This document shows, one piece after another, positions 4,114 through 11,737 of a stretch of 40,646 bases of DNA. A program made the position numbers and the translations under genes. Where the stretch lies: the IMG/VR virus record IMGVR_UViG_2675903413_000001, positions 1 through 40,646 of that record; one strand, 5' to 3'. Position 1 is the stretch's first letter; each line of letters opens with the position of its first letter. The notes beneath the pieces were generated by a model. It was not told where the DNA came from. It ran no database searches and worked only from the letters and a program-made list of their open reading frames with translations. This DNA is from a virus (lineage: Duplodnaviria > Heunggongvirae > Uroviricota > Caudoviricetes).

Positions 4114-5082
4114 TTAGTAGGTTATTTTTGTTGCGAATACTTCGCCTTTTACGATGGCTGTTATGATATTTTTAGCAACATCTTCTGATGCACCAACCTT
4201 GATAAGGTCAGCAAGTATTTTGTTATTTACTTCTTTCCGGTGAGCTTTATCCTTTGCTCTACGCTCTTCTTCTTCCTTGATTCTTTTTTCTTCTGCTATT
4301 CTGGCTTGCTCTTTTGCTTCAGCCTCGCGCCGGATTCGTTCAGCCTCCTCCTGTGCTTTTCGGCGTTCTGCTTCAATTGCCGCCTGCTTTTCTCTTTCAG
4401 CTCGTTCTGCTGCCTCTTTTGCTTCGCGCTGTGCTCGTTGCTCGGCTTCAATGCGTTCACGCTCTGCACGTTCCGCTGCTGCCTTAGCTTCTGCTTCTCG
4501 CCTTGCTGCTGCTTCAATTTCGGCTTTTGCCTTTGCTTCGGCTTCTGCTCTGGCTTTCTCTTCAGCTTCTCTTTTTAAGCGTTCTTCATGCTCTCGCTTT
4601 TCCTGCTCCACTTTGAGTCTTGCCTCTTCTCTTTTGCGGTCAAATTCGCGATCCATCAAAATCGCTATTTCATGGTCAGACTCAATTTGCTTTGCGAGAG
4701 CTTCAGCTGCTGCCTTAGCTTCTTCTTCGGCTTTAATCCGTGCCTGTTCCTCCTCATAATCAGTAAGAGGCTGGCGCGCCTTGGCTTTCAGTTCATCAAG
4801 GCGATCGCGCACTGTCTTGCGGTTGGCATCAATTAGCTTTGGAATTTCCTTCAGTTCAGCAACAAGGTCTTTGCCAAGACCATCGAGATATGTTTTCGTC
4901 TGCGCAACTTTATACGCCAGAGAAGCGATCTCCTTTCTGCCCTTTGCCGTTGTGATATCAGGCACAAAGGACATAACTTCACGTTCAACCTTTTGGAGAA
5001 TTTCTTCAATCTGGTCGGCAGACTGAAATACAGTCATTGCATTTGCTTTTTCAATAACAACTAAATCTGTTACTTCACTCAT
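4114..5082 (-). CDS. Coiled-coil protein with long E/A/K/R-rich central repeat region (322 aa), function unknown
   Basis: ORF track 4114..5178; ATG 5082 (MSEVTD) chosen because of strong SD GGAGGA 5 nt upstream; ~150 aa of AEAKA/ERAERE-type repeats. Confidence 0.65.
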   Translation of the reverse strand: MSEVTDLVVIEKANAMTVFQSADQIEEILQKVEREVMSFVPDITTAKGRKEIASLAYKVAQTKTYLDGLGKDLVAELKEIPKLIDANRKTVRDRLDELKAKARQPLTDYEEEQARIKAEEEAKAAAEALAKQIESDHEIAILMDREFDRKREEARLKVEQEKREHEERLKREAEEKARAEAEAKAKAEIEAAARREAEAKAAAERAERERIEAEQRAQREAKEAAERAEREKQAAIEAERRKAQEEAERIRREAEAKEQARIAEEKRIKEEEERRAKDKAHRKEVNNKILADLIKVGASEDVAKNIITAIVKGEVFATKITY

Positions 5083-5093
5083 ATATCCTCCAT

Positions 5094-5123
5094 CAAAAAA
5101 AATTGCCCTCACACTGGAGGGCA
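5094..5123 (-). terminator. Rho-independent terminator on minus strand (tL1-like), immediately upstream of the coiled-coil gene
   Basis: Stem TGCCCTC/GAGGGCA (5104..5123) followed on minus strand by ATTTTTTT. Confidence 0.55.
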
Positions 5124-5336
5124 AAGAAGATTTCCAATAATCAGAACAAGTCGGCTCCTGTTTAGTTACGAGCGACATTGCTCCGTGTATTCACTCGTTG
5201 GAATGAATACACAGTGCAGTGTTTATTCGTATGCCTGTCTTTTAACCACATCAGGCTCGGTGGTTCTCGTGTACCCCTACAGCGAGAAATCGGATAAACT
5301 CTATTCACCCCTACAGAGAGCAAAAGAGAAACGCCG

Positions 5337-5921
5337 ATGAACAACTCATGGTGGCAGGAACTAATGCATTTTTTCCTGCAAGGAATGACACTTAAACAGT
5401 TGATTCATATGCTAATCATCCTGATCATATTGATTATTGTTATGCCGGTAAGCGTAAAAGAATGGATAAACCTGCATAATCCAGAAATCCTTCCTCATTA
5501 CTGGATGTATTACATCCTGTTGTTTTGCGTTAGCTATGTGCTTAACGGCGTTGTTAATTCCGCTTATCACGCTGTGACTGAAAGAATTGAGGTATTCGCT
5601 GCTCAGAAGCGCAAATCTAAAGAAGAGAAATACGTGAAAGATTTGTTTGATTCGTTAACTCTTGGAGAAAGAGCGTATTTGGCACTCGCTGTAGTCGCTA
5701 ATAACCAGCTACAAACGGAAAAGGGAAGCCCTGAAGCAATCTCATTGCTCGAAAAAGGGCTTCTTATTCGGATACCTTCTGCTACTGGATATCCTGAAAT
5801 CGACCGTTTTGTTATCCCGGAACGCTATAGAAATGAGTGCTACATTAGGTTTGCTGGGAAGAAAGACAGTCTTATGGATGAACTTATCGCTCAGGATAAG
5901 CATGGCAAAACAAGTAATTAG
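5337..5921 (+). CDS. sieB: SieB-like superinfection-exclusion membrane protein (194 aa), tentative
   Basis: Hydrophobic N-terminal segments; size and position next to N as remembered for lambda/P22 sieB; on the strand opposite to the pL operon. Confidence 0.45.
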   Translation: MNNSWWQELMHFFLQGMTLKQLIHMLIILIILIIVMPVSVKEWINLHNPEILPHYWMYYILLFCVSYVLNGVVNSAYHAVTERIEVFAAQKRKSKEEKYVKDLFDSLTLGERAYLALAVVANNQLQTEKGSPEAISLLEKGLLIRIPSATGYPEIDRFVIPERYRNECYIRFAGKKDSLMDELIAQDKHGKTSN

Positions 5922-5933
5922 CAAATGATTTTA

Positions 5934-6206
5934 TCATCTCGCCGTCAGTTGTTTTGATTTCCTGTAGCCTGCCGCGTAAAGAGCTACGTTTGGAAGACAA
6001 GTTGAGCCTTCATATTTTCTGGTCAGCGTTGTCAGTGTTATTACTTCTGCTCTCATTGCTGGTTTGCGCTTACATTGCAAGACCACTCGTGAGGGGGTTG
6101 GTCTGTGTAGCTTGTCGGAGCTAATCGCCTCCTGACTTTGCAGGTTTGCGCGACGAGCTCTACGACGAGAAGCTGAGGTGCCTTTAAATTCTGTTTTTCT
6201 GGACAT
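5934..6206 (-). CDS. N: N-type transcription antitermination protein (P22 gene 24-like)
   Basis: Arg-rich motif SASRRRARRANL near N-terminus; C-terminus LPNVALYAAGYRKSKQLTAR matches remembered P22 gp24; SD GGGAGG upstream of ATG 6206. Confidence 0.8.
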   Translation of the reverse strand: MSRKTEFKGTSASRRRARRANLQSQEAISSDKLHRPTPSRVVLQCKRKPAMRAEVITLTTLTRKYEGSTCLPNVALYAAGYRKSKQLTAR

Positions 6207-6302
6207 AGATTCCTCCCGAATAAACTTTGGTGATGCAATCTCGAAGCTCTTCCTGAGACGGTTGCTTCGGCATTGCATCCCACAGCTCATGTGGTTGGGT
6301 GA

Positions 6303-6351
6303 TCTGGCTTTTCAGCCACGTAGTCGAGTGTTCGACGTTGTTTAAAGAGCA
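6303..6351 (-). promoter_or_regulatory. nutL: nutL: boxA-like TGCTCTTTAAACAA (6338..6351) and boxB-like hairpin TGGCTGAAAAGCCA (6303..6316)
   Basis: Read on minus strand between pL and N; boxA resembles rrn boxA TGCTCTTTAACAA; boxB has a GAAA(A) loop. Confidence 0.55.
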
Positions 6352-6395
6352 TGCCAGTCTGTTCCGTTTGGCTACCAGCGTCCTGCTGCTGAAAA

Positions 6396-6470
6396 TGATA
6401 GTCACATATTGTGATTTAATGGTCAATCACAAAATGTGTAAAATAAGGATGTGACACGTTATGTGTATGA
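6396..6470 (-). promoter_or_regulatory. OL operators and pL promoter region
   Basis: Palindromes TCACAtatTGTGA (6402..6414) and ATCACAaaaTGTG (6426..6438); minus-strand -35 TTGACC / -10 GACTAT candidate. Confidence 0.5.
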
Positions 6471-6675
6471 TTTTTTTGTGTAAATAGTTTTCCCCGCGAT
6501 GGTTTTGCTTACTTAAGTCGGGGGCAGCAGCAGGATGGTGTGCTGAAAAGTTCGAAAAACGAGCGAAGTAGGTGGTGGCGAGATGGCGGTATATGGGAGT
6601 TGTATTAAGAATTATAGTAGTTTAATCAAAGGCTTGGGCTGGCTGTCAGGTGCTGTCCTGATAATGATCGGCGGG

Positions 6676-6703
6676 AAATAAAAAACCCGGCGCGGTGGCC
6701 GGG
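6676..6703 (-). terminator. Rho-independent terminator on minus strand, just downstream of the 340-aa gene
   Basis: Stem CCCGGC/GCCGGG (6686..6703) followed on minus strand by TTTTTTATTT. Confidence 0.65.
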
Positions 6704-6713
6704 TTTGAAGGTA

Positions 6714-7736
6714 TCACTTTGAAATCCTTGATATCATGGCAAGTTCGATAATTCCGCTTCGGATTTTGTAGTCTCCGAAAAGTTTCGTCGTATCAGATTC
6801 TTTCATTGCATCGTACAGCAAATCAGTTTCTTCTTTATCAAAGAATTCCGTCAGCACATAAGCTGGGAAGGAGTAGTCCTCTCCAACCTTTCTGCATGTA
6901 ACTGTCAGCTTTTCTGGAGTTTTCTTAATCCCCTCAATCTCAACCTCTACGGTAAGTTCGCTGTTAGTCATTTTTTCACGCGGGTTCTGGATCATCTCTT
7001 TGATATCTTTTTGGTCTAACTCAATTTTAGCAAGACCATTGAATTCGACTTTATCGGCATCAGAAACCCCTTTTAACACACCAACAACAGCATTAGCTGC
7101 ATGGTTTTGAATTCCTTCTGAAATATCCCTTGCTGCTGGAGTAGCACTTGATGCGCTAAGAGCTTCAACAATTCCATCCTTGAGAATTCTCATTCTCTCA
7201 TTTTCAGAATTGTTATCTTCTTTAGCTTCGTCAAGCTCAAGCTGTTTCATGTCTTTTTCATGCTTGTTTTTTAGGTGCGACTTTACGAGCCACGCCCCAG
7301 TAAGGAGTAGAGATATGAGAACTAAGCAGATTGCCTTTTCTGTTCCAGTCATACCTTGGGTTGATCTCTCAAATGCTATACCAAAAGAATCTATGACATC
7401 CTTAATGGCAACGATAAGGTCAGTACATCCTGGCTCGACCTTAAATATGATTTCAAGCTCTTCACGATCATTCTTAGTGAGGTGCTTAAGGTTGTCAGTT
7501 CCGTGCTTAACAAGCGTATATGCTTTATAGAGTTCAGTCTGAAACTCGCACATCCCTTGAGCTAGCGATGCCGGAATGGTTCCATTATAGCGCTCAGGAT
7601 CCCCGTAAATCTTGAAATTTACGACATTTACGAAATTTATGTTTAAGTTTTCTACCGTAAACTCTTCACCCTTCTTAAGGCGATGTAGCAAAGATTCAAC
7701 GTCGCTTAGGTTTGAAACCTCAATTTGATTTTCCAT
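6714..7736 (-). CDS. Unassigned 340-aa protein in the immunity-region moron slot, with one central hydrophobic segment
   Basis: ORF track; lies between repressor stop and OL/pL; AICLVLISLLLTGAWLV hydrophobic stretch; own terminator; no family recognised. Confidence 0.7.
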   Translation of the reverse strand: MENQIEVSNLSDVESLLHRLKKGEEFTVENLNINFVNVVNFKIYGDPERYNGTIPASLAQGMCEFQTELYKAYTLVKHGTDNLKHLTKNDREELEIIFKVEPGCTDLIVAIKDVIDSFGIAFERSTQGMTGTEKAICLVLISLLLTGAWLVKSHLKNKHEKDMKQLELDEAKEDNNSENERMRILKDGIVEALSASSATPAARDISEGIQNHAANAVVGVLKGVSDADKVEFNGLAKIELDQKDIKEMIQNPREKMTNSELTVEVEIEGIKKTPEKLTVTCRKVGEDYSFPAYVLTEFFDKEETDLLYDAMKESDTTKLFGDYKIRSGIIELAMISRISK

Positions 7737-7830
7737 TTTGCCCTTGGATTTTATCCCTGGTAAAAGTGAATCGTTCCAATCTTAAGTCGGATACGCGCTG
7801 TGTGTAATTTCGGCAAGTGACGCAAAATCT

Positions 7831-8478
7831 TTACCCAAACGTCTCTTCAGGCCACTGAGCCTTAACTACCTTGCCTATGATTCGGCAGCTATGGTCGCAA
7901 TCCAGGGTTCTGTATGCCGGGTTTAAAGGCACCAGGTAACTAACCCCTGCATCCTTCTCATACTTCTTGAACGTTGCCTCTGAATCACCATTTGCAGAAG
8001 CTACGCAGAAATCCCCAGACTCTACCGGCTCGGCAGGGTCTACGAGTATTAGCATACCCTCAGGAAAGCTCGGCCTTACGCCCTGTGGCGCAGTCATAGA
8101 ATGGCCTTTCACCTCAAGCCAGAAAGCTTTTTCGCTGGCTTTTGTGGTCGTTGGGACCCATGCCTTTGCATCGCTGGCTGTGTAGCTTCCCACCTCCGAA
8201 AACGGCCCGGCCTGCACTGAAGAAAATAACGGGTACTCATATTGGCGAAATACGGCGTCTGAATCCTCGCCAAACATTATTTTTGCCGGAGATACGCCGA
8301 GTGCCGCCCCAAGAACCAGCGCGTCATCCGCGCTAACCTTTCTTGTTCCTAACTCGTAGTTACCCAGGCGTGAAGGCGCAGCCCAGCCGCAAAGCTTGGC
8401 CAATTGAGCCTGGCTAAGTCCTTTAGCTTCTCTAAGGGACTTGATCCTTTCCCCGATAATTTCATGCATCGTTTTCAT
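7831..8478 (-). CDS. cI: CI/C2-type prophage repressor (HTH plus LexA-like S24 peptidase domain)
   Basis: 215 aa; N-terminal HTH ([11 protein letters not shown]), C-terminal domain with GDSM and catalytic Lys region typical of autocleaving repressors; divergent from cro. Confidence 0.85.
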
Positions 8479-8489
8479 CCCTTAAATGT

Positions 8490-8556
8490 AACACGCAACG
8501 TGATTGAACTCTGTACACGAATTGAGGTTGACTGTTAATCACAAATTGTGTGTAAT
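8490..8556. promoter_or_regulatory. OR operators with PR promoter (-35 TTGACT 8528..8533, -10 TGTAAT 8551..8556)
   Basis: Palindromes CACGcaaCGTG (8492..8502) and ATCACAaatTGTG (8538..8550) between the divergent repressor and cro. Confidence 0.55.
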
Positions 8557-8586
8557 GGGTGTGTGATTAATGCTAGGGAGACCGCA

Positions 8587-9271: not shown

Positions 9272-9439
9272 TATGACAAAACGTCGTAAGAAATACCAGG
9301 AAAAAGAAGAGATTCGACACCCTGATTCACCTGAGGGATTAGTGGTAGCCGCAGCAAATAACAGGGCGTTCGCAGAGCGCCTTGTTGGTGTTTACAGACT
9401 AGCCAAAGCAGGAGTGAAACATGGGCGTCGTTAAGTTAG
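9272..9439 (+). CDS. Possible small ORF (55 aa) between cII and O; low confidence
   Basis: Manual translation MTKRRKKYQEKEEIRHPDSPEGLVVAAANKQ...; good SD AGGAG; overlaps start of O-like gene. Confidence 0.2.
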
Positions 9440-10311
9440 CTGATTACAGGCATAACCCTGTACAACATCAGGAGGCATCCAGTATGGGGTATGTCTCTAT
9501 ACACCGCCAGTTTATGGACAGCAGGCTCTATAAGGACTCTCAGGCAGTACATCTTTGGCTTCACTTAATCCTCAAGGCTAATCACGAATCTACTGTCGTC
9601 AATACGGATATCGGTCCGATAACTGTTGATCGCGGTCAGATGATAACTGGACGCCCGTCGCTGGTCAGAGAAACATTCATCCCCGACAACAAAGTTCGGA
9701 GCTTATTACGGACTTTTGAGTCGAAAGGGATGCTTAATATTTGCTCGATGGGGAAGAAATTTAGCCTGTTTACAATCGTTAAATATGACGATTTTCAGGC
9801 AAAAAATTGTCCAACGGTTGTCCAACGGTTGTCCAACGCAAACACCAGTAATGGCGCGGCTCTCAGCGGAGATTGTCCAACGGTTGTCCAACGGTTGTCC
9901 ATAAACAATAATATAAATAATATCTCTAATACTGACGTATTAGAGAGTGCCACAGCAGACAAAAAGTCTGACAAGAAAAAACCTTCCGTCAGCTGTCAGG
10001 ATGTTGTCGATGCTTACCACAAAATCATTCCTGAAGCGCCAAGAATCCGCGCACTGAATGACAAGCGTAAAAACCAGATCCGAACGTTCTGGCGCAAAGC
10101 CGGAGTGATAACCCGCCAGCTTGACGGGCATGGGTTCACGATGCAGGACTGGAGAAATTATTTGAGCTACGTAGGCGAAAATTGCCGATGGATGTTCGAA
10201 GAGCGCCCAAACCATCAGCGCGGAACCGTCTGGCACAAAAAGGGATTTGATTTCCTGCTTAACGATAATACCTACCTGAAAGTTCGTGAGGGTGAACACG
10301 ATGACCGATAA
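9421..10311 (+). CDS. O: Replication initiation protein, lambda O-like replisome organiser with internal origin
   Basis: 296 aa; contains the iteron array; followed by overlapping helicase gene; alternative start at 9484. Confidence 0.7.
   Translation: MGVVKLADYRHNPVQHQEASSMGYVSIHRQFMDSRLYKDSQAVHLWLHLILKANHESTVVNTDIGPITVDRGQMITGRPSLVRETFIPDNKVRSLLRTFESKGMLNICSMGKKFSLFTIVKYDDFQAKNCPTVVQRLSNANTSNGAALSGDCPTVVQRLSINNNINNISNTDVLESATADKKSDKKKPSVSCQDVVDAYHKIIPEAPRIRALNDKRKNQIRTFWRKAGVITRQLDGHGFTMQDWRNYLSYVGENCRWMFEERPNHQRGTVWHKKGFDFLLNDNTYLKVREGEHDDR
9806..9903. repeat. ori: Replication origin iterons: six copies of TTGTCCAACGG in two groups of three
   Basis: aattgtccaacggttgtccaacggttgtccaacgc (9806..9840) and gattgtccaacggttgtccaacggttgtccat (9871..9903), inside the O-like gene as in lambda ori. 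Confidence 0.8.
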
Positions 10312-11737
10312 TTTTTATGCGCCGCCCCATAGCATCGAGGCAGAGCAGGCGGTGATTGGTGGATTGCTTCTGGATGATGACAGCAGTGAGCGCGTCCAGA
10401 AAGTTCTGGCGATGCTGAAGCCTGATTCATTTTACAGCCGACCACACAAAATCCTTTTCGAAGAAATAACCAGAATGCACCGGGAGCAAAAGCCAGTAGA
10501 TGGCCTGACGCTTTTCGATGAACTGGAGCGTAAATCGTTAACGGCGTCTGTTGGCGGTTTTGCTTATATCGCTGAGATCGCAAAGAACACGCCAAGCGCC
10601 GCAAACATCGTTGCCTATGCAATGCAGGTTCGCGAAACCGCAATGGAACGCTACGCCATCAACCGCATGACTGAAGCGACGGAATTGCTCTATTCCCGCA
10701 ACGGAATGACTGCGACGCAGAAGTACGAAGCTATTCAGGCGATTTTCACGCAACTGACAGACCATGCAAAAACCGGATCGCGTCGCGGCCTTCGCTCATT
10801 TGGTGAGGTCATGGAAGACTGGGTTAGCGACCTTGAGAAACGATTTGACCCATCAGGCGAACAACGGGGAATGAGCACAGGTATCCCATCGCTGGACAGG
10901 ATGCTGTCACCGAAAGGTCTGGTGAAAGGCTCTCTGTTTGTCATTGGCGCTCGCCCTAAGATGGGGAAAACGACGCTATACAGCCAGATGGCAATCAATT
11001 GCGCAGTGCATGAGAAAAAGCCCGCTTTGATGTTCAGCCTTGAAATGCCAGGTGATCAGATACTGGAAAAACTGGTAGGGCAGAAGTCTGGTGTTAACCC
11101 GAATATTTTTTACCTTCCGGCGACAAATGACGCTGATGACGGCTATCAGGGTGATTACGATGGTGACTTCAACAGGGCGATCGAAACAGCCAATCGCTTG
11201 AGTGAAATCGACCTGCTTTACATCGACGACACGCCGGGATTATCTCTGGCTCAAATCGTCAGCGAAAGCCGTCGAATCAAGCGAGAAAAAGGATGTGTTG
11301 GCATGATTCTGGTCGATTACCTGACACTAATGACTGCTGAGAAGGCCGATCGCAACGACCTTGCTTACGGCATGATCACCAAAGGACTGAAGAACCTTGC
11401 CAAAGAGCTTGATTGCGTTGTTGTGCTTCTGACGCAGCTTAACCGCGCACTGGAAAGCAGAACCAATAAACGCCCATTACCAAGTGACTCACGAGATACA
11501 GGGCAGATTGAACAGGATTGCGATTATTGGGTCGGGATCCATCGTGAAGGCGCTTTTGATGACAGTGTTCCACCTGGTGAAACTGAACTAATCCTTCGTC
11601 TCAATCGTCATGGCAATACCGGCACGGTGTATTGCATTCAGGCAAATGGCGCTATTTATGACACAGACCAACAGTCTGCTGAAATGCGCCGCCGTGAACG
11701 CGAGGAACCGCAGTCCAAGAAGAAAGGAGGATTCTGA
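10301..11737 (+). CDS. DnaB-like replicative helicase (P22 gene 12-like)
   Basis: Walker A GARPKMGKTT; DnaB N-terminal motif SIEAEQAVIGGLL; ATG 10301 with SD GAGG. Confidence 0.85.
   Translation: MTDNFYAPPHSIEAEQAVIGGLLLDDDSSERVQKVLAMLKPDSFYSRPHKILFEEITRMHREQKPVDGLTLFDELERKSLTASVGGFAYIAEIAKNTPSAANIVAYAMQVRETAMERYAINRMTEATELLYSRNGMTATQKYEAIQAIFTQLTDHAKTGSRRGLRSFGEVMEDWVSDLEKRFDPSGEQRGMSTGIPSLDRMLSPKGLVKGSLFVIGARPKMGKTTLYSQMAINCAVHEKKPALMFSLEMPGDQILEKLVGQKSGVNPNIFYLPATNDADDGYQGDYDGDFNRAIETANRLSEIDLLYIDDTPGLSLAQIVSESRRIKREKGCVGMILVDYLTLMTAEKADRNDLAYGMITKGLKNLAKELDCVVVLLTQLNRALESRTNKRPLPSDSRDTGQIEQDCDYWVGIHREGAFDDSVPPGETELILRLNRHGNTGTVYCIQANGAIYDTDQQSAEMRRREREEPQSKKKGGF

Follow-up and report, generated by a model that had tools for sequence, protein, structure and literature searches.

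In lambdoid prophages the interval between the cI repressor gene and the terminator of the immunity operon can be occupied by rexA and rexB, which cause membrane depolarisation. RexB has four transmembrane helices. BstA, a prophage defence protein, is reportedly also encoded directly downstream of a prophage repressor, and it is said to be soluble with a KilA-N-like domain. The stretch of DNA examined here (the window) is the 40,646-nucleotide (nt) virus record IMGVR_UViG_2675903413_000001 from IMG/VR, assigned to the Caudoviricetes, and it carries in the same interval a single leftward open reading frame (ORF) of 340 amino acids (aa), which is the subject of this report.

Other described exclusion and abortive-infection proteins resemble the product of this ORF in architecture or setting. 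PdpSau from Staphylococcus aureus prophages and AbiP from Lactococcus are membrane-anchored abortive-infection proteins with an OB-fold-like domain, and the C-terminal part of PdpSau is positively charged and was predicted by its authors to bind DNA (PMC10127798). SieA of phage P22 is an inner-membrane protein responsible for superinfection exclusion (PMC10461980). SNIPE (PD-lambda-1) consists of an N-terminal transmembrane helix, a DUF4041 domain and a GIY-YIG nuclease (PMC13190303).

The rexAB slot of the immunity operon

The ORF proved to be a genuine and conserved cassette of one gene, located in an exchange slot between the repressor gene and the terminator of the immunity operon. The features of the slot are as follows.

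6714..7736 including the stop codon, minus strand: 340-aa ORF, a phrog_6191 member and the lone cargo of the immunity-operon slot (ORF call, profile match)
7737..7830, minus strand: leader of 94 nt with AAGGG at 7741-7745, which moves with the ORF and not with cI
7831..8478, minus strand: cI-type repressor, 215 aa, with HTH_3 and Peptidase_S24 domains (Pfam), 100% identical to WP_001299796.1
6673..6706, minus strand: rho-independent terminator with a 9-bp stem containing 6 G-C pairs (6683-6706), then TTTTTTATTT (T-run, 6673-6682)
6708..7834, minus strand: exchangeable cassette consisting of the ORF and its 94-nt leader (blastn breakpoints at 6704-6707 and 7835)

The ORF has an ATG start codon preceded at a distance of 5-9 nt by the Shine-Dalgarno-like AAGGG of the leader, and its N-terminus and length are kept among homologues. 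Operator repeats of the AATCACAAAATGTG type occur at OL (~6403-6454) and OR (~8534-8566), and these repeats, the ORF call and the domains of the repressor confirm the location between the repressor and OL/pL proposed in the initial annotation of the sequence. The ORF had also been described as richer in A+T than its neighbors, which is correct since its G+C content is 0.403 (cI, 0.522; window, 0.465), a value within the lowest 3.8% for segments of the same size.

The boundaries of the cassette are evident from other phages of the same immunity. Both flanks of the cassette have 91-97% matches, with identical breakpoints at 6704-6707 and 7835, in phages VT1-Sakai and mEpX1 and in a prophage of Escherichia coli G3/10, and blastn detected no similarity between these phages and the window from one breakpoint to the other. 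The exchanged segment is therefore 6708..7834, which spans from the stop codon of the repressor gene to the upstream foot of the terminator, and in this comparison of related prophages it is the only part that differs in kind while the flanks are held in common. The G3/10 prophage, whose repressor has the accession WP_001299796.1 and which shares the terminator-to-pL flank, carries rexA-rexB between the same junctions. The slot is thus the rexAB slot itself rather than a mere equivalent of it, which goes beyond the rexAB-equivalent position suggested at the outset.

Other cargo is found at this site. In mEpX1 the slot (locus L002, 2811-4219) holds a gene pair encoding a DUF6932 protein and a 310-aa protein, which match the PADLOC candidate PDC-M63A/B with E values of 1.8e-41 and 7.5e-45. 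The slots of Sakai Sp15, BA92 and E110019 contain a gene for a 183-aa protein, H0053, and a 93-aa gene, and the BA92 and E110019 repressors have the same accession as that of G3/10. H0053, as found with its 93-aa partner in O157 Sp15-type prophages, matched nothing in Pfam or PADLOC. Both PDC-M63A/B and H0053 with its partner are further defence candidates. In E. coli 2017.10.01CC the slot (L065, 3215-4261) is occupied by a 348-aa member of the ORF's own family (WP_001272876.1) behind a repressor that is 100% identical. The rexAB slot of lambdoid prophages is accordingly an exchange site with fixed junctions and at least five cargo sets among prophages with one identical repressor. Additional loci of slot cargo are:

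2813-3364 of L001: slot cargo of VT1-Sakai
3213-4052 of L066 and of L067: slot cargo

A strong terminator belonging to the ORF had been placed at 6676..6703. The terminator is real and directly follows the ORF, with its stem starting seven bases 3' of the stop codon and a predicted folding energy of -16.6 kcal/mol for the region (z = -2.7), but the coordinates were a few bases off and the terminator is not the ORF's own. Phages of the same immunity with different cargo become homologous to the window again at 6704-6707, which places the terminator within the shared frame of the immunity operon. The CCCGGCCACCGCGCCGGG terminator with its T-run is also present 3' of family members whose proteins are only 45-50% identical, and the same terminator follows rexB, PDC-M63B and H0053. 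In the VT1-Sakai record the equivalent site is annotated as 'terminator for the pRM transcript'.

Neither a sigma-70-like promoter nor a terminator was detected in the leader at 7737..7830. The predicted fold of the leader RNA was not significant (z = -0.85), and the three leader sequences were too few for covariation analysis. The leader is conserved as DNA in two other loci (window 7737-7830; L023, 5902-6003; L032, 5906-6003) whose proteins are just 47-50% identical. Co-transcription of the ORF with cI from PRM is suggested by the co-directional arrangement of the two genes, the distance of 94 nt between them, the leader devoid of promoter and terminator, and the terminator immediately after the stop codon. 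The cI-type repressor would then be the upstream gene of the operon that contains the 340-aa ORF.

A widespread family in mobile elements

The product of the ORF matches phrog_6191 over its full length (E value 1.9e-105, 353.7 bits, residues 1-339 aligned with positions 4-332 of the 338 in the profile), and judged by sequence this is the only family to which it belongs. Membership in phrog_6191 says nothing on mechanism because that family is without known function. Scans of the ORF product against Pfam, NCBIfam and PADLOC-DB v2.0.0 matched no family, and relaxing the Pfam threshold to E <= 1 yielded just a sub-threshold Na_trans_assoc. Scans of 84 diverse relatives with Pfam (E <= 0.01) and PADLOC likewise gave no consistent family, all matches in a profile search of a named protein database bore the name 'hypothetical protein', and against PDB sequences the profile produced a single weak match, to OAS2, at chance level (E value 0.006). 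No paper on the family was found in the literature library searched. The family is missing from the searched libraries of domains and defence systems and is uncharacterised, in agreement with the initial annotation, which could not assign the ORF to RexA, RexB or any named family. A profile built from the 84 members aligned with RexA and RexB in hhalign with probabilities of only 0.7% and 0.2%, respectively.

When 1.84 billion representatives, which are clusters at 50% identity, were searched exhaustively with a HMMER profile, 762 matched at E <= 1e-3 and 328 met the stricter limit of E <= 1e-10, almost all of them full-length at 310-375 aa; a word-indexed search returned only 11 clusters. Among 50,697 phage records tblastn gave 11 matches, and annotated phage homologues include proteins of mEp332 (74% identical) and of the PhiR12 series (49%), which bear the GenBank label 'T2SS GspM containing protein' discussed below. 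The exact protein of the window is found on 79 contigs whose source is named as E. coli, and the 90% cluster to which it belongs also includes sequences from Cronobacter, Franconibacter, Leclercia and Pantoea. None of 5,426 complete RefSeq E. coli genomes carried the allele at the megablast level. Only three of 72,556 plasmid records contained the family, and a scan for a distant subfamily identified only three loci, which were high in G+C and noisy.

The position behind a repressor is deeply conserved. Of 39 viral loci encoding family members, 32 had sufficient upstream sequence to judge, and in 27 of these a co-directional S24 repressor gene lies directly upstream, mostly at a distance of 44-127 nt. 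A repressor with only a helix-turn-helix domain precedes the gene in one further locus, which brings the total to 28 of 32. The 27 S24 repressors form 13 clusters at 60% identity, and the gap between repressor and family gene is as short as 6-22 nt in other members. The same position is occupied in Morganella and Cronobacter, and also in two metagenomic prophages whose proteins have only ~24% identity to that of the window. The Morganella prophage (L005) has a gene for a DUF3024 protein at 4566-4907, between the repressor gene and the family gene, that matches PADLOC candidate PDC-S43 (E value 1.3e-30), which indicates that the slot can take two cargo genes in series.

Other members reside in different surroundings. 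One distant member is carried by a conjugative element with a type IV secretion system (L011, 7445-13008), immediately upstream of a Druantia-like pair of genes, which encode DruA and a large DEAD/MZB helicase. Another adjoins an MmeI-type restriction-modification enzyme and a resolvase, and yet another is at the accessory end of a satellite-like element with AlpA, a D5 primase and a small terminase. Additional members lie beside tail-fibre genes, tail-fibre-assembly genes or DinI at prophage ends, or directly after an integrase gene. In L058 an IS3-family element interrupts the family copy (6001-6612) near residue 190, and this copy adjoins a gene for a SopA-like type-III effector. L048 and L058 were considered as P4-like satellites, an assignment that was rejected given that the 807-aa neighbor is the SopA-like effector. 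No recurrent partner gene was seen across the family neighborhoods examined, and the cassette of the window consists of one gene.

Predicted architecture of the protein

An AlphaFold2 model computed from a 10-sequence alignment had a mean predicted local distance difference test score (pLDDT) of 80 and a predicted template modelling score (pTM) of 0.72. The model and the family alignment suggest the following parts, all encoded on the minus strand.

7353..7736, minus strand: N-terminal alpha/beta domain, aa 1-128 (aa 1-124 in the model), net acidic, where conservation within the family is highest (predicted model, alignment)
7278..7334, minus strand: single predicted transmembrane helix, aa 135-153, a hydrophobic peak conserved across the family
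7068..7232, minus strand: long helical hairpin, aa 169-223 (predicted model)
6717..6968, minus strand: C-terminal OB-fold domain, aa 257-340, a beta-barrel at 257-339 in the model (predicted model; fold searches returned OB folds only)

No recognisable fold for the N-terminal domain was found among PDB structures; its conserved residues include G45, L86 and G103. The domain is followed by the central hydrophobic stretch AICLVLISLLLTGAWLV that had been pointed out earlier, and this stretch (mean Kyte-Doolittle value of 2.04 for a 19-residue segment) has turned out to be a predicted transmembrane helix conserved throughout the family; the model places a helix at aa 131-145. In 83 of 84 members the strongest Kyte-Doolittle 19-mer falls at the same alignment position, with a mean of 1.81 and a value of at least 1.6 in 60 of the 84, and none of the members has a second hydrophobic peak by this measure. 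The fixed position of the peak, the lack of a second one and the free variation of its residues argue that a single transmembrane helix is genuinely present. It has a high content of Gly, Ala, Ser and Thr, and small-xxx-small motifs occur in it in 74 of 84 members compared with 62.7 +/- 3.4 for shuffled sequences; GxxxG is not enriched (13 of 84 observed versus 12.4 expected).

A charged linker at aa 153-172 is modelled with low confidence, and a short beta element is predicted between the hairpin and the C-terminal beta-barrel. The two halves of the protein diverge at different rates, with a mean pairwise identity of 27% for the N-terminal domain and 17.6% for the C-terminal half, and the former exceeds the latter in 96.8% of 3,486 pairs. 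The net charge of the OB domain is -5 in the protein of the window and averages -2.3 in the family, and it is positive in only 10 of the 84 members. The allele of E. coli 2017.10.01CC is 26% identical to the window protein across the N-terminal domain and transmembrane helix, and BLAST detected no similarity between the C-terminal halves of the two proteins. From these alignments the 2017.10.01CC allele is a natural case of replacement of the C-terminal module.

Comparison with described exclusion systems

The Rex system of lambda shares its slot with the ORF, being located between cI and the terminator of the immunity operon and, in G3/10, between the very same junctions. It is presumably co-transcribed with cI and ends at the same terminator, and like the cassette described here it includes a membrane component. 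The Rex system consists of two genes rather than one, however, RexB is a multi-pass protein whereas the ORF product has a single hydrophobic peak, and neither Rex protein is homologous to the ORF product.

PdpSau and AbiP are nearest by architecture, since they combine one membrane helix with an OB fold and are encoded by single genes borne on prophages or mobile elements, and the ORF product is a candidate for a protein of this kind. The anchor of PdpSau and AbiP is N-terminal, whereas the helix of the ORF product comes after a conserved domain of 128 aa. Moreover, the C-terminus of PdpSau is basic while the OB domain of the ORF product is acidic, and the helical hairpin of the ORF product has no counterpart in PdpSau or AbiP. 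Direct comparison of PdpSau (phage 53 ORF016) with the ORF product gave an hhalign probability of 0.1% and a BLASTP E value of 8.3.

SieA and SNIPE appear to be functional analogies only, and the ORF product is not proposed as a member of either group. As with SieA, the ORF product is a predicted inner-membrane protein expressed from a prophage, with a proposed interference with the conduit for genome delivery, and its sequence types may likewise be strongly diverged within one function. The ORF family is far more widespread than SieA and also occurs on mobile elements other than phages. P22 and HK97 were not among the 11 tblastn matches in the phage records, a search that did not include a comparison with a SieA profile. 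SNIPE is a single-pass, membrane-anchored defence that exploits the site of phage genome injection, and the likeness of the ORF product to it is by analogy; unlike SNIPE, the ORF product lacks any catalytic domain, nuclease or otherwise, and matched nothing in Pfam or PADLOC. It also differs from BstA as described above in possessing a transmembrane helix and in having no KilA-N match in Pfam.

The ORF product has no match to PF14163, the SieB family. A homologue of the superinfection-exclusion protein SieB is encoded by the neighboring ORF at 5337-5921 on the plus strand, beside N (Pfam PF14163, E value 2.6e-24; phrog_1301, 9e-122). The prophage thus carries a second lysogen exclusion gene, ~800 bp from the slot.

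Proposed function and alternative explanations

Candidacy of the ORF for a defence or exclusion function is credible by association. It is suggested by the alleles of the slot, which are rexAB and a PADLOC candidate, by retention of the position behind many types of repressor, and by the location of distant members beside Druantia and MmeI-type restriction-modification genes. Candidate defence genes are numerous, and the comparative evidence lifts this ORF above the average one through its allelism with rexAB, the 13 repressor types, the deep conservation of position and the pattern of a chassis with a variable module. On balance it is somewhat probable that in the lysogen the ORF is transcribed together with cI from PRM and that its product is an inner-membrane protein and restricts superinfecting phages.

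The explanation that best accounts for the data overall, believed about as much as it is doubted, is a lysogen-expressed anti-phage protein of the inner membrane with a variable C-terminal recognition module. In the mechanism envisaged, the ORF would be transcribed with cI from PRM, and expression from that promoter would put the protein in the inner membrane of the lysogen, where the conserved N-terminal domain and the transmembrane helix might form an oligomeric chassis. With the N-terminus in the cytoplasm and the C-terminus outside (N-in/C-out), the module made up of the hairpin and OB fold would face the periplasm. There it could bind a genome-delivery component of the incoming phage, such as a tape-measure or ejection protein, or else a factor of the host needed for entry, and infection would be halted at the membrane as the genome enters or shortly afterwards. 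This finer part of the scheme, namely recognition of the invader by the variable hairpin-plus-OB module, a block at the membrane at or just after entry, and N-in/C-out topology, is tentative and on the whole doubtful. Four observations weakly favour the N-in/C-out orientation: no signal peptide precedes the N-terminal domain of 130 aa, the 10-residue flanks of the helix carry net charges of +0.44 (N side) and -0.36 (C side), the C-terminal domain is poor in cysteine, and the acidic OB domain is ill-suited to DNA binding.

Several points weigh against this explanation. A positive-inside bias is absent when flanks of 15 or 25 residues are considered, and in the protein of the window lysine and arginine residues next to the helix number four on the C side versus two on the N side, so that the evidence on topology is weak and partly contradictory. 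A protein that purely blocks entry has no obvious need for a conserved domain of 128 aa across the membrane. The pTM of 0.72 may mean that the N- and C-terminal domains are packed together as predicted in the model, which is awkward if the membrane separates the two. Furthermore, expression in the lysogen is inferred, and the support for defence consists entirely of associations.

Alternatively, the ORF product could be a membrane-anchored sensor-effector of abortive infection like AbiP, PdpSau or RexB, in which a cytoplasmic OB domain would bind a nucleic acid or protein of the phage after entry, and oligomerisation through the transmembrane helix would then depolarise the membrane and kill or arrest the infected cell. 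Such a mechanism is consistent with the combination of a transmembrane helix and an OB fold, as in PdpSau and AbiP (PMC10127798), with the enrichment of small-xxx-small packing motifs in the helix, with the excess of lysine and arginine on the C side of the helix in the window protein, and with the presence elsewhere in the slot of rexAB, a cause of membrane depolarisation. It is nonetheless rather unlikely, because the OB domain is net acidic, here and on average in the family, while the C-terminus of PdpSau is reported to be positive, the protein has no sequence or profile similarity to PdpSau, and the helix is central, so that a cytoplasmic C-terminal domain would call for the unusual export of an N-terminal domain of 130 aa that has no signal peptide.

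It is also conceivable, though quite improbable, that the protein is not directed at phages and instead serves the lysogen in envelope or stress fitness, lysogenic conversion or the tuning of prophage induction, the last of which has reportedly been proposed of late as a role for RexA and RexB. Moron slots carry virulence and fitness genes as well, some family members are found beside non-defence cargo such as the SopA-like effector and DinI, and no PADLOC model matched any of the 84 members scanned. The ORF is dispensable, however, with rexAB or PDC-M63 taking its place in prophages whose repressor is identical; distant members adjoin Druantia genes, MmeI-type restriction-modification genes and the accessory region of a satellite; and a rapidly changing C-terminal module suits an arms race better than housekeeping. 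Should the function prove not to be defensive, the family would still represent a common membrane protein expressed, as gene order suggests, in lysogens. A type II secretion or pilus-assembly-like component, as implied by the GenBank label 'T2SS GspM containing protein' in records PV340541 and PV340549-PV340554, is hardly believable. GspM too is a bitopic inner-membrane protein, but no GspM match was obtained in Pfam at E <= 1 with the window protein or at E <= 0.01 with the 84 relatives, and no secretion-system genes are nearby, the gene being alone in phage immunity regions. The label is effectively refuted by the family scans and by the fold searches, which returned OB folds only.

If the ORF is a defence gene, it would be of the prophage-borne, single-gene, membrane-anchored type that is already known, with a chassis fold that has no recognisable match. 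If phage restriction were confirmed, the defence catalogues would gain a widespread single-gene system, and the protein would provide a second, sequence-unrelated architecture for the theme of a membrane anchor plus OB fold exemplified by AbiP and PdpSau. The conserved chassis and variable C-terminal module predict that specificity could be swapped with the C-terminal half. A bolder possibility, which must be regarded with considerable doubt, is that the ORF is the prototype of a large family, so far without a name, of single-gene anti-phage systems in prophage immunity operons, satellites and conjugative elements, with an undescribed N-terminal fold and a fast-evolving, membrane-held OB module that detects or blocks genome entry. 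In that case the family would parallel membrane-located defences such as SNIPE, but in a non-enzymatic form. The rexAB slot is, for its part, a ready source of candidate defence genes and offers a natural isogenic series.

Other features of the window

The regulatory sites on either side of the operon and the gene downstream of the ORF are listed here.

8488..8556 (approximate), no strand assigned: OR operators with PRM and PR, transferred from 'putative' features of the VT1-Sakai record (93% identical)
6398..6468 (approximate), minus strand: OL operators and pL, transferred from the VT1-Sakai annotation
5934..6290, minus strand: N antiterminator, downstream of the ORF

An Rfam scan of the entire window gave no match. 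On the other side of the repressor, the ORF at 9421-10311 on the plus strand encodes a 296-aa protein that is replication-initiator-like and has no Pfam match, and the next gene, at 10286-11737, encodes a DnaB-type helicase. Within the initiator-like ORF are 11-nt direct repeats, TTGTCCAACGG, arranged as two clusters of three at 9806-9846 and 9872-9912. The repeats encode the repeated peptide CPTVVQRLS and are probably origin iterons. A protein of 354 aa encoded at 4114-5178 on the minus strand, without a Pfam match, has a long low-complexity core rich in Glu, Ala, Lys and Arg, and its biased composition gives rise to several long, spurious antisense ORFs.

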